IMG/VR virus record: IMGVR_UViG_3300017747_002194
Span: 64,001-91,443 of that record
Strand: one strand, 5' to 3'
Length of the DNA stretch: 27,443 nt
From: a virus
Lineage: Duplodnaviria; Heunggongvirae; Uroviricota; Caudoviricetes
The position numbers and the translations under genes are program-made. Below are positions 3,725-25,927 of the stretch, one piece after another. A model generated the notes under the pieces. That model saw nothing but the letters and a program-made list of their open reading frames with translations. It made no database searches and had not been told where the DNA came from. Each line of letters opens with the position of its first letter. Position 1 is the stretch's first letter.

Positions 3725-5199
3725 TACTCGTGGTATAAGTTAGGTGAAACTACAAATTGTAATACTTGTGAAGCTGTAGCAGCACCAGATAATATCTTTA
3801 CAATAACACCAACAAATTCACCTGGATTAACTACAACAGGTGCTTCAAAATCAAAGTTACAAGTCATAGGAGCTGCTTGTCCAATTACAGCTGAAACAGG
3901 TATTGTTAATACACCTAAAGGTTGTACACGTCTAATCTTAGTAGTACCTGTAGCAAATGAAGCTGATTCTGTAGTAGCTAAAGAAGCTGCTGTTGAACCC
4001 CATGCAAGAGCTACTGCATACGTTGTAGGAACAGTTGCAGAGTTAGCTGCACCAGCATTTACTAAATCAACTGCAATACCTCTAACAAACATTGTTCTAG
4101 CAGTTTGGTTAACACCACCTAATGGGTTTTGGTAGCTTGAGATAACAATATCTGTAGCAGATGTAGCAGCAGCATTTAATTGAAATATACCTCCTAAGAA
4201 AGCTCCTAATGCAGCAGTAGTATTTGTACCAGCAGCCGCAGTTGGTAAAGTTGTATTAGCCCATTGTATTTGTTGAGCACCATTGGTATAAGTACCACCA
4301 TCCAATGTTTGTAATCCTAAACCAGAACCTGCCATTTGACTAGCCCAAGTTTTATTAGTTGCAATATCCATTAAAGTAACTGTAACATCACTCACTTTAA
4401 CAATCATATTTGGAGAAGAACCTACTAAAGCAGCATTGTATTTAGTAATAAATAATGGTAATGTTGTAGATAAGAATGCTTGTCCTTGAGCTACAGGTAA
4501 AATTTGTTCACCATATAATACATCATCAATCCAATATTCAACTTCTCTTTCACCAATCACCATTGCATATTTAGCATTACTATTTAAAGGAATATCTGCA
4601 ACAGTAGCTATTAGTGTTGTTTTAGCAACTACACCACTATTATATCTAATACACCCTTTTAATCCATCTGAAGTTAATTCAAACCATACTCCATCTGCAG
4701 GTTCAGCAGCAGCTACAGCTACACCTAATCCTGCTAAAAATACTTCATTAACTGTAGGTAACATTGTAAATGAACCTGTTAATTCAACACATACAGGAGC
4801 TGTACCTATTAATGGAAAGTATCTCCAAGATTGTAAAAAAGCATAGTTACCTGAAACAGTTGATGTACCAGCAGCATTTACATTTAAAAAACCAGCTGAC
4901 TGAGTCATGGTCATAGTAGTAAATGCGTGTTTCCATAAACCTGTATTCTGTGTAGTAGCATTGAAAGTATGTGTAAATAACACAGTATCTACACCAACTC
5001 TAGTTCTATAATCTTGAGAAATTTCACCTGATTTTAAATAAGGAGTACCTGTTTTTGTACCAGGATCATTTTCTTGAAATGCTCTTACAACACCTACATT
5101 AGTAGGATTTGTCGCAGCATCAGTTTCTAAAACTACTTTAGCTGCATTAAAACTATTTACTTCTTGTTCATACGTTGAACCTTTAACTCTTATACTCAT
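3724..5199 (-). CDS. Putative tail spike/fibre (virion structural) protein
   Basis: 491 aa, Ala/Thr/Gly/Val-rich with few charged residues and predicted all-beta modules; TAATG-coupled on both sides. Confidence 0.6.
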   Translation of the reverse strand: MSIRVKGSTYEQEVNSFNAAKVVLETDAATNPTNVGVVRAFQENDPGTKTGTPYLKSGEISQDYRTRVGVDTVLFTHTFNATTQNTGLWKHAFTTMTMTQSAGFLNVNAAGTSTVSGNYAFLQSWRYFPLIGTAPVCVELTGSFTMLPTVNEVFLAGLGVAVAAAEPADGVWFELTSDGLKGCIRYNSGVVAKTTLIATVADIPLNSNAKYAMVIGEREVEYWIDDVLYGEQILPVAQGQAFLSTTLPLFITKYNAALVGSSPNMIVKVSDVTVTLMDIATNKTWASQMAGSGLGLQTLDGGTYTNGAQQIQWANTTLPTAAAGTNTTAALGAFLGGIFQLNAAATSATDIVISSYQNPLGGVNQTARTMFVRGIAVDLVNAGAANSATVPTTYAVALAWGSTAASLATTESASFATGTTKIRRVQPLGVLTIPVSAVIGQAAPMTCNFDFEAPVVVNPGEFVGVIVKILSGAATASQVLQFVVSPNLYHE

Positions 5200-7370: not shown

Positions 7371-7943
7371 TTATTTGCAAGTTTTACACCCATTATTTAA
7401 GCATAATTTATCTACTATTTTCTTAATAGCGTTAAAATTATCCACATCTCCACAAGCTGCTGCTTTTTTAAGAGATTCTAATTGAGTCCAAGCAAGGATA
7501 TAATCCTTATAGGATTGAGTTTCTTTACAACAATCACATGTTTCTACATTAGGTTGCATTTGTTTAATACAACATTCTGAATTACAGTAGAAATATTTAT
7601 AGATTGTTTTAGTGTAAGTATCTACACCATCACTTACTGTATATACAAATAACCATTCTCCATCTTCAATAGATGTAGGACTACCTATACTAGATAATGG
7701 AATATCATAGTATTGTGATGTATTATAAGTAGGGAATAAAGATGTAACAAATAAATCTAAAGTATAAGTAACTCCATCAGGATTAGTTATAGTTAATGTA
7801 GCACTAGTCATAGCACTATCTAAAGGGTTAGGGGTACCATAACCTGTAGTATTACTTGAGTTATAAACACCTGTAGTTTCAGTAAATCTTATTTGAGAAC
7901 AAGAGTTAATTACACAGGTTGAAAAATTAAGTTGTAATGCCAT
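7371..7943 (-). CDS. Cys-rich virion protein, tail-hub-A-like
   Basis: 190 aa: Ig-like N-terminal half, Cys-rich helical C-terminus (CNSECC...CDCC...ACGD...LCLNNGCKTCK); follows the auxiliary-capsid-like gene. Family resemblance is recalled, not searched. Confidence 0.5.
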   Translation of the reverse strand: MALQLNFSTCVINSCSQIRFTETTGVYNSSNTTGYGTPNPLDSAMTSATLTITNPDGVTYTLDLFVTSLFPTYNTSQYYDIPLSSIGSPTSIEDGEWLFVYTVSDGVDTYTKTIYKYFYCNSECCIKQMQPNVETCDCCKETQSYKDYILAWTQLESLKKAAACGDVDNFNAIKKIVDKLCLNNGCKTCK

Positions 7944-8080: not shown

Positions 8081-9355
8081 CTAGAATGCTAATGTTGCAG
8101 GAGCAGCTGGAGTGCTAGCTAACCAAGTATTTAACTTAGAGATCAATGAAGCACCTTCAGTTGAACTTGTAGTTAAAGAAGCGGCAGCTGAAGTAGTCCA
8201 TGCAGCAGCAGTATTAATTGCTGGAGTAGCAACGTAAATAGATTTTTGAGCTAATGCTTGAACATCTGCACCAGATGTAAAAGTATTATCAGCAAATGTT
8301 AATACAATTACTGAGTAGAAACAACGTACTTTAGCTTTATCACCAGCAGTAATAGTAGCAGATAATGGAGTAGTTAACCATACAGAAGTACCAGCAGCAT
8401 TCATATATTTAACTTCATAATTAGCACCATCTAATTCTACTAATTCACCTACGCGGATAAATCCTGAGATATCAGCAGCAAAAGTTACTTTATCTTCTGA
8501 AATAGTTCCTGACACGTTTACACCTGTAGCACCAGATAAAATAGCTGTAGAGCTTACTTTTAATTTAGGTGTTTGAGCAGGCCATAGTCTACGGTTAGAT
8601 AAACCTTCGTATTGGTATTCAAAGTTCTCTTTATTATACACTTGATTATAAGTACCAGTTCCATAAGAATTAGCTACAATTTGAGTACAAGTAGTAGTAG
8701 TTCCAAACCCTGTTGAGTCATCAACATGAACTGAGAAATATACACGATTTTCTTTGTAAGTACTAGATTGGAATTGTTCAATGTCTTTAGCAGTGATTTC
8801 AACACCATAATTAGTTGCGCCTGTTAAACCATAAACACCAGTACCATCACCTACAACAATTGCAGAAATTAATGTTTTAAATCCACCATTATTAATAATA
8901 GCAGCTGCTTGAGTAGCGATACTTAATTGACTAGCTGTTGCAGAAGAAATAAAGTTAATTCTTAATACTTCAGGTCTTTCAGAATATAAAGATTTATCAT
9001 TCTTAAAACGAATACTTGCTGTATAATCTGAATCATTATTTACTTCAATAGAACCTGTAGCAGTTTTACGATTATATCCTAAAGCCCATACTTCACGAGT
9101 TGCTGGTTTGTAAGCTTCTGCACGAGCAGATACCACTGAGCGACCATTAATCCACATAGATTTTTTGAATGTTCCATCAGAATAAGTTTCTGAAAATTGA
9201 ATAGAATCAGCAGCTCCACCAGCTGAATAAGCTGAAGCTAAGATAGCTTGGTTAGAATTAAATAATCCTAATTTACCTACTGTTAGTGTGTTTACATCAG
9301 CTTCTAATGCTGAACCATTACCCACAAAAATGTTTGTTACTTTATGAATTGACAT
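8081..9355 (-). CDS. Abundant virion structural protein, probable auxiliary capsid protein of crAss-like phages
   Basis: 424 aa, Ala/Thr/Ser-rich; three genes downstream of the MCP-adjacent gene and followed by a strong terminator; central Ig-like segment. Identity inferred from synteny. Confidence 0.55.
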   Translation of the reverse strand: MSIHKVTNIFVGNGSALEADVNTLTVGKLGLFNSNQAILASAYSAGGAADSIQFSETYSDGTFKKSMWINGRSVVSARAEAYKPATREVWALGYNRKTATGSIEVNNDSDYTASIRFKNDKSLYSERPEVLRINFISSATASQLSIATQAAAIINNGGFKTLISAIVVGDGTGVYGLTGATNYGVEITAKDIEQFQSSTYKENRVYFSVHVDDSTGFGTTTTCTQIVANSYGTGTYNQVYNKENFEYQYEGLSNRRLWPAQTPKLKVSSTAILSGATGVNVSGTISEDKVTFAADISGFIRVGELVELDGANYEVKYMNAAGTSVWLTTPLSATITAGDKAKVRCFYSVIVLTFADNTFTSGADVQALAQKSIYVATPAINTAAAWTTSAAASLTTSSTEGASLISKLNTWLASTPAAPATLAF

Positions 9356-9397: not shown

Positions 9398-9871
9398 TTA
9401 AAGTACTACGAAATGAATTTTAACTACATCGTTTAATACTGTAGCTGCAGGAGCACCATTACCAATCTTGATTTTAAAAGATCCTGAACCAGGAGTACCC
9501 TCAGTCATTACAATTGGATTACCTGTTTTACCAGAAGCGTATTCTGGTGTAAGTAATATAACTGAACTTGTTGTTACATAACTATTAGTTACTGTAAAAG
9601 GACCACTTGTAGAACCACCTGCAGTTGTTAAACTTACAGTTGTAATTACACCTGAAGCAGCATTAACAGTTACTCCTGTTGTAATATTAGTTGCTTGTGT
9701 TACTGTACCTTTAGTAACAGTTACTTTATCAGCTGTAACTAAGTCAGATGTAAATGATGTTGAAAAACCATTAACTACATTAATTATAGCGTCAATTGTA
9801 CTAGATAGTATTTTAACATTTGGGATTTTAGCTCCTAAAAAATACTTGTTTGAAATTAATTCTATTGCCAT
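9398..9871 (-). CDS. Putative head fibre/capsid decoration protein
   Basis: 157 aa Thr-rich; VTQATNITTGVTVNAASGVIT...FTVTNSYV...VILL module typical of phage fibre tips; located in the head module. Confidence 0.5.
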   Translation of the reverse strand: MAIELISNKYFLGAKIPNVKILSSTIDAIINVVNGFSTSFTSDLVTADKVTVTKGTVTQATNITTGVTVNAASGVITTVSLTTAGGSTSGPFTVTNSYVTTSSVILLTPEYASGKTGNPIVMTEGTPGSGSFKIKIGNGAPAATVLNDVVKIHFVVL

Positions 9872-19992: not shown

Positions 19993-19995
19993 AAG

Positions 19996-20075
19996 TTGGA
20001 GTGGTAGGATTTGAACCTACGTAGCCTAAGCGACAGATTTACAGTCTGCTGATTTCCCAACTTACCATCACTCCA
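19996..20075 (-). tRNA. trnY: tRNA-Tyr(GUA)
   Basis: Acceptor TGGAGTG/CACTCCA; anticodon arm GCAGA-CT GTA AA-TCTGT; variable arm; GTAGG-TTCAAAT-CCTAC T arm; no encoded CCA. Confidence 0.9.
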
Positions 20076-20083
20076 ATATTTTG

Positions 20084-20166
20084 CGGAAGACTAGGGACTC
20101 GAACCCCAAAACCTTTTACAGCCAACAGTTTTCAAGACTGCTTCCTCATCCAGCCGGATGCCTTCC
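20084..20166 (-). tRNA. trnS: tRNA-Ser(UGA)
   Basis: Acceptor GGAAGGC/GTCTTCC with G discriminator; anticodon arm GCAGT-CT TGA AA-ACTGT; long variable arm; TGGGG-TTCGAGT-CCCTA T arm; no encoded CCA. Confidence 0.88.
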
Positions 20167-24919: not shown

Positions 24920-25273
24920 ATGAAAGCAATCGTAAATCCAACAACAGGTCAAGAAGAAGTAATTTTTGAAGCTAAATTATTATCTATTGCAGCTAAACCA
25001 TTAGCTAATGTAAACGGTACTGAATACCGTCCAGCATCTATTGAATTCAAAGATGCAAGTGGAAAAGTACAACAAACTAGTTGTATTGTGTATGAAAACA
25101 ACTACAACAAAGGTATGACTGTAGGTCAATCATACTCAGCTCGTGCAGTAGTAACTGATAATGGCAGTGTATTAATCACTGTATCTCACTTAACTGCAGC
25201 AGCTCGTCCAGATGAGACAATGTTCTCTTTTGGTACTGCAGTAGCAGCAGTAAGTAAACCATTAAACTCTTAA
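24920..25273 (+). CDS. Hypothetical protein (beta-rich, possibly OB-fold-like), highly expressed
   Basis: 117 aa with strong codon bias (GCA/GTA/ACT/GGT); A-rich leader containing CAATAAATCAATTAAAATCA. Confidence 0.8.
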   Translation: MKAIVNPTTGQEEVIFEAKLLSIAAKPLANVNGTEYRPASIEFKDASGKVQQTSCIVYENNYNKGMTVGQSYSARAVVTDNGSVLITVSHLTAAARPDETMFSFGTAVAAVSKPLNS

Positions 25274-25285
25274 GAGTTAATTGGT

Positions 25286-25377
25286 GTGTGGTATAGCTCA
25301 GTTGGTCAGAGCGTGTGAATAGAGAGTCTTTACTCCCGAACTCGCAAGGTATGTAGGTTCAAATCCTACTACCACAC
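25286..25377 (+). tRNA. tRNA-like gene (His-like G-1:C73 acceptor) with a 23-nt anticodon loop; anticodon not assignable
   Basis: Acceptor TGTGGTA/TACCACA; canonical TA-GCTC-AGTTGGTCA-GAGC D arm; stem TGTGA/TCGCA enclosing 23 nt; GTAGG-TTCAAAT-CCTAC T arm; no CCA. Confidence 0.75.
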
Positions 25378-25927
25378 CTTTTGTTTAGTTTTATTTGATA
25401 GTTTACCTAAACACAGTTTAAATGTTCTGTAAAAACGTTCCTTGTAGGTTAGTTGGTTAAACCTTACTTTAAAATATTGTAACTTAGTTACAGAAAATGA
25501 TAGTTAGGTGATGTATTTGGTAGTTCTTATACAGCATACTATACGTGAGGTGGTTTAATATCTTTCCACCAGTTAGTCCAAAACTAAAAGATAATATTAT
25601 ATAATTTATTGAAACAAAGTCTTACTAACTTTAAAGTAAATAAATTATATTTTATTAAAATACTTAAGTGGATAAAGGAATGTGTGTTGTAGACATTCCT
25701 CCACAAATATTAATCAAAGTTGCGTACCATGTGATGCTGATTATAACCTCGCCAAGATTAGGTTAGACTTGGCCATATTAAACAAACTTATAAGTTGTCC
25801 TTTAACTAGGCATGATAAAAGCATCTAAACAGTGTGTATATCTCAGCATGAAACTTACAATCAGGTGAGAAGCCTGTTCTTTTTAAACAATTCATTTAAT
25901 CAATAAATCAATTAAAATCAAACAATC

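Follow-up and report, generated by a model that had tools for sequence, protein, structure and literature searches.

A tRNA-shaped element of a freshwater crAss-like phage in which selection appears to act on the tRNA top half

We describe a tRNA-shaped element of a freshwater crAss-like phage, whose stems are kept by compensatory change among related phages and whose anticodon loop has neither a conserved length nor a conserved anticodon. Comparison of the homologous loci indicates that selection acts on the top half of the tRNA, namely the 13-bp acceptor/T-arm stack, one unpaired C and the U-rich trailer. In the lineages with a complete cloverleaf the overall L-shape is kept as well, and the anticodon loop, which carries a 23-nt insert in the phage studied here, is the only part free of constraint: it can grow, shrink or vanish. 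We suggest, with a probability of about 45%, that the element is a processing or stability tag and sets the ends of the mRNA before it and of the RNA behind it; this role is inferred. The initial annotation of the DNA had proposed a non-decoding tRNA mimic with several possible functions. Its non-decoding character is borne out by the comparison, and among the functions listed the processing tag fits best.

The window, i.e. the whole stretch of DNA analysed here, is the final 27.4 kb of a 91.4-kb IMG/VR record with a completeness of 97%. Portal, large terminase and major head protein of the record match crAss-type PHROG families, and the terminase shares ~35% identity with its counterparts in crAss-like phages of the gut and in those of Flavobacterium and Cellulophaga. 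From ~23.1 kb onwards the window contains a plus-strand arm of small genes with long non-coding gaps between them. This arm is early-type, and the element is located in it within a structured region of ~220 nt, with the following features upstream of the conserved block described below.

24920-25273, plus strand: ORF117, small protein with an OB fold and weak similarity to SSB and PriB (ORF list, AlphaFold, Foldseek)
25258-25285, plus strand: hairpin/palindrome over the ORF117 stop codon, CCAUU..ACUCUUAAGAGU..AAUGG, adjoining G-1 (fold)
25286-25378, plus strand: tRNA-shaped element with G-1, 7-bp acceptor stem, D arm, 5-bp anticodon stem, T arm, C73 and unpaired C74 (Rfam, covariance model, manual parse)
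25319-25341, plus strand: 23-nt anticodon 'loop', made of the internal loop AUA/GAAC and an inner hairpin (25322-25327 with 25332-25337) with the cap CUUU at 25328-25331 (fold)
25378-25385, plus strand: unpaired C followed by the U-rich trailer (CUUUUGUU), conserved in relatives

The stop codon of ORF117 is 13 nt 5' of the element. No Pfam or PHROG family matches the protein. Its AlphaFold model (pLDDT 81) is mostly beta strand with an OB fold, and the best Foldseek matches, all weak, are SSB, PriB and Rim1 with E ~1e-3. We regard it as a candidate small single-strand-binding protein of the early region, on the strength of the predicted fold. Three true tRNA genes are encoded elsewhere in the genome.

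19995-20166, minus strand: true tRNA-Tyr and tRNA-Ser genes (ARAGORN)
C1:7060-7133 of the genome: true tRNA-Met gene

The element is isolated from them: it is ~5 kb away from the tRNA-Tyr and tRNA-Ser genes, on the opposite strand and outside any tRNA cluster. The three true tRNAs encode the discriminator N73 and one C74 and no CA, and this layout is common to them and the element. Their 3' trailers are not U-rich, unlike the trailer of the element. A search of the phage genome gave no synthetase, CCA-adding enzyme or TGT. We note that the T arm of the phage tRNA-Tyr is the same as that of the element over a 17-nt match.

The cloverleaf described initially is present in all its parts. G-1 (25286) faces C73 (25377), and the 7-bp acceptor stem TGTGGTA/TACCACA pairs 25287-93 with 25370-76. 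The D arm GCTC/GAGC closes the loop AGTTGGTCA with its canonical GG, the 5-bp anticodon stem TGTGA/TCGCA (25314-18 with 25342-46) surrounds 23 nt (25319-41), and the T arm GTAGG-TTCAAAT-CCTAC has the canonical TTCRA loop. All 21 stem pairs are standard in the manual parse. The Rfam tRNA model RF00005 recognizes the element with 48.6 bits (gathering score 29; E = 1e-7 for the window) and places the anticodon loop as a 23-nt insertion; our own covariance model R1 gives 57 bits. The minimum-free-energy fold (-28 kcal/mol) is the same cloverleaf, including the G-1:C73 pair and an inner GAGU-CUUU-ACUC hairpin. Position 3:70 is U:A, so the element has no G3:U70. ARAGORN misses the element in its default run and, when introns are allowed, makes the mechanical call of a tRNA-Ser(AGA) with a 16-nt intron.

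The element is not an assembly error, since the same sequence occurs in L021 and L022, two independent assemblies from different samples. It is present as a single copy, as our covariance model finds only the element and the tRNA-Tyr in the genome. Megablast and blastn against phage records returned no match to the region, a scan of viral contigs with the exact pattern from the D arm through the anticodon stem gave none, and we found no description of this phage tRNA-shaped element in the literature.

The insert of the anticodon arm differs in detail from its first description. The inner GAGT-CTTT-ACTC hairpin exists; its actual length is 6 bp (25322-27 with 25332-37), with one A.C mismatch. 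In a close relative, represented by contigs of three RNA-library runs, the variant A25323G turns it into a perfect 6-bp stem with the CUUU cap, and the energy of the inner hairpin is -13.2 kcal/mol with this change and -6.3 kcal/mol without it. As noted initially, there is no GUG anticodon: GTG is absent from the loop in the window and from the loop of every relative, and no usable anticodon is found in the 23 nt. The bulge-helix-bulge motif is indeed missing, as the fold has a symmetric-side internal loop and a capped hairpin, not staggered 3-nt bulges. A K-turn was rejected for the AUA/GAAC internal loop by eye, as its G.A pairs are not adjacent to the stem. The initial annotation highlighted the structured insert and proposed a search for the same expanded arm, with covariation, in related phages; relatives with a normal 7-nt loop were to count against it. 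The relatives carry 7-nt loops, other inserts, or no D and anticodon arms at all, and this part of the initial reading fails by that measure. Hence, the insert is a lineage-specific hairpin extension and not the functional core.

We compared about 20 related phages, the loci of which were collected via the 117-aa protein ORF117 from IMG/VR, JGI and ENA metagenomes and Logan assemblies; a search with the conserved downstream motif added two more loci. The slot directly 3' of the stop codon holds one of three things: a cloverleaf, a minihelix, or a hairpin + T-run terminator. The cloverleaf elements all score 44-53 bits with the Rfam tRNA model and differ in the anticodon loop.

L025: cloverleaf, anticodon loop of 5 nt
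L016: cloverleaf, anticodon loop of 7 nt, CGUUUAA
L027: cloverleaf, anticodon loop of 7 nt, CGAUUAA
L036: cloverleaf, anticodon loop of 12 nt
L012: cloverleaf, anticodon loop of 20 nt
Window: cloverleaf, anticodon loop of 23 nt
L013: cloverleaf, anticodon loop of 26 nt

The long loops are extended hairpins of mutually unrelated sequence, and from 5 to 26 nt no anticodon triplet is common to the cloverleaf relatives. U33 is almost universal in the anticodon loops of tRNAs; in both 7-nt loops it is replaced by G33. A decoy for anticodon nucleases, one of the functions proposed initially, is unlikely because no anticodon loop is conserved.

In the minihelix form the D and anticodon arms are missing, and an acceptor stem of 6-7 bp is joined to a T arm of 6 bp by a GG-containing linker of 11-12 nt. 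This form is carried by L003, L004, L015, L023, L024, L026, L028-35 and L163. The minihelix stems show compensatory changes of their own, and some of the T loops (ATCATTT, ATCGTTT) are off the TTCRA consensus. In the distant ORF117 homologues (L005, L010/11, L017, L019 and L020) the same slot is occupied by GC-rich hairpin + T-run terminators.

For the covariation analysis, a covariance model was made from three normal-length members and used to align seven cloverleaf homologues. In this alignment (A8), which is fitted to structure, 98.7% of the cells are standard pairs and 18 of the 22 pairs change on both sides; none of 500 shuffles reaches such values, and slid controls are ~40% paired. The MAFFT alignment of the full elements (A5) is unreliable around the variable arm, and A8 and the manual parse were used in its place. 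Manual segmentation, which is independent of A8, leaves 0 or 1 non-standard pair per sequence. The pair -1:73 covaries too: among the seven aligned homologues it is G:C in five, A:U in L025 and U:A in L036. In the minihelix form, every allele has A:U. The acceptor/T stack of the cloverleaf thus comprises 8+5 = 13 bp, and that of the minihelix 7+6 = 13 bp. In the main clade, C-TT(T/A)T follows directly 3' of every cloverleaf and every minihelix copy. What stays constant across the two forms is the 13-bp acceptor/T stack, the single unpaired C and the U-rich trailer.

In the maximum-likelihood tree of the flanking protein, carriers of the cloverleaf and of the minihelix interleave. The window pairs with the minihelix carrier L023, and L025 pairs with L003 (support 100/98). 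The ORF117 proteins of L013, which has the cloverleaf with the 26-nt loop, and of L015, which has a minihelix, are identical. Since the two forms interleave on the tree with near-identical flanks, we conclude that they are functionally interchangeable. In L163 (about 9040-9080) and L164 (about 9660-9695) the upstream gene is a different one with the same ..LNS-stop end. Given the interchange and the position of the module behind another gene, the module appears to be a recombining cassette in which either form suffices, and its reader would therefore need only the top half of a tRNA. It is also observed that the non-coding module apparently recombines as a unit that includes the last codons of the upstream gene. 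By eye, the relatives have a hairpin or palindrome of differing sequence over the stop codon of the upstream gene.

We suggest the following mechanism for the processing or stability tag. Host enzymes that read the top half of tRNA would dock on the element, with RNase P acting at its 5' side and RNase Z, or trimming and CCA addition, at its 3' side. Docking would define or protect RNA ends, and it would separate or stabilize the mRNA on the 5' side and the three-hairpin RNA on the 3' side. RNase P, RNase Z and the CCA-adding enzyme are known to accept a minihelix of acceptor stem and T arm as a sufficient substrate. This, together with the N73-C74 layout like that of the true tRNAs, is why we favour the tag. 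Several observations argue against it. Apart from tRNA-His, a -1/73 pair is unusual among the substrates of RNase P, the T loops of some minihelices no longer fit TTCRA, and covariation extends to the D arm and anticodon stem, for which a pure top-half tag has no need. A general punctuation system of the phage was rejected, as the element is single copy in the genome.

RNA libraries give weak evidence on the tag. Four metatranscriptome runs of one aquatic study hold parts of the stretch, and three of them contain a single contig each, of 181-222 nt, covering about 25231-25463. The contigs derive from a relative with ~97% identity, whose sole change within a helix is A25323G. In all three runs they bridge both borders of the element and keep the insert with no joint, in libraries where DNA carry-over is possible and rare spliced forms may be missed. 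They read past the U-run into the conserved downstream block. Being uncut across both borders, they are not suggestive of efficient excision, which counts against the processing tag; short processed products would be lost from such libraries, and the contigs cannot reveal RNA ends, as coverage gaps and contig stops are unusable for ends or abundance.

A conserved block of ~85 nt with three hairpins lies 3' of the U-rich trailer, at 25382-25464.

25382-25413, plus strand: hairpin H0, variable 7-bp stem with the conserved loop ..UUUGAUAGUUU.. (RNAalifold, pair counts, MAFFT alignment A3)
25421-25439, plus strand: hairpin H1, 6-bp stem with the loop CUGUAAA at 25427-25433 (alignment A3)
25445-25464, plus strand: hairpin H2 with D-arm layout, i.e. 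UA, 4-5 bp stem and loop AGUUGGU(U/C)A (alignment, fold)

Compensatory changes are found at 5 of the 7 pairs of H0 and at 3 of the 6 pairs of H1, which is 100% paired. For the two hairpins together, counted on a plain MAFFT alignment not fitted to structure, there are compensatory changes at 8 pairs with 96.9% of the cells paired, and 0 of 500 shuffles reach these values. The stem of H2 is invariant, so covariation is uninformative on it. The G.U pairs of the block are consistent only with the plus strand. The block looks like an undescribed structured RNA: its loops are conserved, it matches no Rfam family and it is single copy in the genome. It may descend from tRNA pieces. We note that the tRNA-Tyr encoded by the phage has an anticodon loop identical to the H1 loop CUGUAAA, and that 11 relatives all keep the UGU of H1. 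A promoter reading of the block was rejected, as no Bacteroidota-type TTTG-N-TAnnTTTG lies nearby on the plus strand, sigma-70-like sites are no commoner than in shuffles, and the block occurs once.

Among the alternatives to the tag, a possible and rather unlikely one is that the element is a matured, CCA-tailed tRNA mimic, which may carry histidine by virtue of G-1:C73. In that state it would serve, for instance, as a sponge or decoy aimed at a synthetase, at EF-Tu or at a defence or toxin directed against tRNAs, or it would donate aminoacyl groups outside the ribosome. The combination G-1:C73 is almost restricted to bacterial tRNA-His, and 7 of the 9 cloverleaf members (window, L012, L013, L016, L027, L164 and L098) keep it despite changes at 1:72 and elsewhere. 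The whole L-shape, with D arm and anticodon stem, is under selection, the window has the canonical GG of the D loop and TTCRA of the T loop, CCA is encoded in L164 and L098, and the neighbouring H1 hairpin has a tRNA-Tyr-type anticodon loop with the invariant UGU. However, the tRNA-His identity suggested in the initial annotation is not conserved, because -1:73 is A:U in L025, U:A in L036 and A:U in all minihelix alleles. Near-identical phages manage without D and anticodon arms, a loop that is not conserved offers no bait for anticodon nucleases, one gene copy would stand against the whole cellular tRNA pool, and the phage lacks a synthetase, a CCA-adding enzyme and a TGT of its own.

The two members with encoded CCA are observations of interest in themselves. 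The L164 element at 9693-9771 is a family member with a canonical-looking 7-nt loop CUUUGGG, G-1:C73 and encoded CCA; ARAGORN calls it tRNA-Gln UUG, and it lies ~130 nt upstream of the same three-hairpin block. The contig SUXH01000010 of a Bacteroidales MAG (L098) has at 7800-7885 a tRNA-like gene with G-1, C73, encoded CCA and an 18-nt anticodon loop, which ARAGORN reports as an 85-nt tRNA-Glu. Its acceptor AGTGGTA/TACCACT is that of L012 and L013, and its gene context is different. A scan of the genome collection by acceptor and T-loop pattern returned, besides L098, more than 120 normal tRNAs of several isotypes (Met, Cys, Gln, Glu), a result uninformative on ancestry or host. L016 is similar to phage tRNA-Lys along 47 nt, and L027 to tRNA-Thr or tRNA-Asn. 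We name no ancestral isotype, since these similarities are inconsistent.

We also consider it possible, though rather unlikely, that the tRNA shape is a relic and that a stable hairpin with a U-run is selected as a terminator or 3'-protective structure of the upstream gene. This reading accounts for the hairpin + T-run terminators that distant homologues have in the exact slot, for the C-TT(T/A)T behind every main-clade copy, for the replacement of the cloverleaf by a bulged 13-bp hairpin, the minihelix, and for the loss of the tRNA consensus in some minihelix T loops. However, D and anticodon stems, which are not needed for termination, are kept by compensatory change, and canonical D-loop and T-loop residues remain in most copies. 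In addition, the RNA-library contigs pass the U-run into the downstream block, and a simple terminator scan makes no call at the site.

A more far-reaching proposal, which we consider improbable, is that the swappable top-half tag links an early phage regulatory RNA to host tRNA biology. The ~200-nt unit would be CCA-tailed or histidylated and would serve as a composite decoy or sensor against tRNA-directed defences or tRNA-modifying enzymes, in which the tRNA-like part would be joined by the Tyr-type anticodon-loop hairpin with its invariant UGU and by the D-arm-like hairpin. If true, the unit would represent an undescribed class of counter-defence RNA in phages.

That the element is a decaying former tRNA gene, i.e. 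a neutral pseudogene, is very improbable, as is the single-event pseudogene offered as the alternative in the initial annotation. The loss of the anticodon, the G33 for U33 in the relatives with 7-nt loops, the insertions and deletions in the anticodon arm and the many relatives without D and anticodon arms would all agree with decay. However, over seven diverged homologues there are hardly any mismatches in 22 pairs and compensatory changes are abundant, the minihelix stems covary too, and the position of the element is kept while the flanking intergenic DNA and even the upstream gene change. Neutrality is disfavoured because pairing is kept by compensatory change and the C and the trailer are conserved.

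Group I introns are far longer than 16-23 nt. A decoding tRNA with a short spliced intron is hardly credible: ARAGORN with introns allowed does give the tRNA-Ser(AGA) with a 16-nt intron, and short 'enigmatic' introns are known in Lak megaphage tRNAs (PMC6784885), but in our enumeration every excision of 16 contiguous nt yields a Ser anticodon, AGA or CGA, the body is not Ser-like (no long variable arm, C73), no bulge-helix-bulge is present, the insert is far below group I size and no Rfam intron family matches at the element, no anticodon is common to the relatives, neither RtcB nor an Rnl-type ligase was found in the phage genome, and the RNA-library contigs keep the insert with no joint seen. 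Two further identities were rejected. An attP core copying a host tRNA 3' end is discounted, since the 97%-complete genome has no Phage_integrase match and both acceptor strands are present. A tmRNA is discounted, since G3:U70, a tag reading frame and a pseudoknot ring are missing and ARAGORN and Rfam find no tmRNA in this phage genome.

Several known RNAs resemble the element in part. The stable RNAs C and D of phage T4 (species 1 and 2) are likewise phage-encoded, tRNA-related and non-decoding, with a role that is unknown (PMC3014915, PMC9697503), and like them the element has tRNA-like ends around a non-tRNA interior. However, the T4 RNAs are inside a tRNA gene cluster, whereas the element is alone behind a protein gene, ~5 kb from tRNA-Tyr and tRNA-Ser on the other strand. 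A further difference is that the element has interchangeable cloverleaf and minihelix alleles. Lak megaphage tRNAs (PMC6784885) and phage tRNAs with anticodon-loop mutations (PMC10264068) have altered or interrupted anticodon loops as well, but their anticodon can still be defined and they are believed to decode; in the present family no anticodon is conserved or recoverable.

Similar arrangements occur outside phages. In mascRNA/MALAT1 and menRNA/NEAT1 a tRNA-like fold with a reduced or atypical anticodon arm lies within a longer transcript and its ends are made by RNase P and RNase Z (PMC8457004). The element has the same kind of placement, 13 nt after the ORF117 stop and bridged at both borders by contigs. 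However, those RNAs are eukaryotic and nuclear, whereas the phage element, for which processing is a proposal, has no triple-helix partner. The TMERs of murine gammaherpesvirus 68 combine, as here, a viral non-decoding tRNA-like unit with conserved hairpins next to it on one transcript (PMC4337559); their transcription by Pol III, in an animal virus, and the pre-miRNA nature of their hairpins have no counterpart in the phage. TLS-His and tRNA-His minihelices are a precedent for mimicry of the tRNA top half in viral RNA (PMC8127992), and the acceptor end in this phage is of the G-1:C73 type. TLS-His stands at the 3' terminus of RNA-virus genomes and has pseudoknots, whereas here a true cloverleaf is located inside a DNA-phage transcript and the G:C pair is not clade-wide.

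Non-decoding tRNA-shaped phage RNAs have been known since T4 RNA C and D, and their function is still unknown. The present family is a natural experiment, in which near-identical phages have either the full cloverleaf with an arbitrary anticodon arm or the minihelix alone. The allele swap indicates which part is selected and restricts the candidate partners to enzymes that recognize the top half of a tRNA. The case also puts an RNA related to tRNA into the early non-coding region of crAss-like phages, which is highly transcribed and whose RNAs lack explanation. Annotations from which codon supplementation or recoding is deduced should keep such elements apart from tRNA-His, tRNA-Ser and intron-bearing tRNAs.

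In a transcription study of the crAss-like phage phi14:2, long intergenic regions of the early part gave more RNA than most genes, and these RNAs lasted throughout infection (bioRxiv 10.1101/2020.03.07.982082). We observe that this related phage (Cellulophaga phage phi14:2, NC_021806) encodes a tmRNA in its early non-coding region: at 4031-4500 ARAGORN reports a tmRNA with the tag GSSVQKLAMVA*, and Rfam tmRNA gives 46 bits, just under the threshold of 47, with E = 5e-16. The site is inside the early intergenic region reported as abundant, persistent non-coding RNA, and the feature table has no RNA gene there. The tRNA-like domain of tmRNA has the same layout as the minihelix allele, i.e. an acceptor stem, a GG linker and a T arm with no anticodon arm.

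Last, two small motifs were noticed around the module. The motif TGATAGTTT recurs in 7 genome copies with no common context. After the three-hairpin block, a GTAAC-N3-GTTAC hairpin stands at 25479-25491 of the window and recurs in L016, L026, L027, L029 and L163, with loops of 3-5 nt and a G.U variant.
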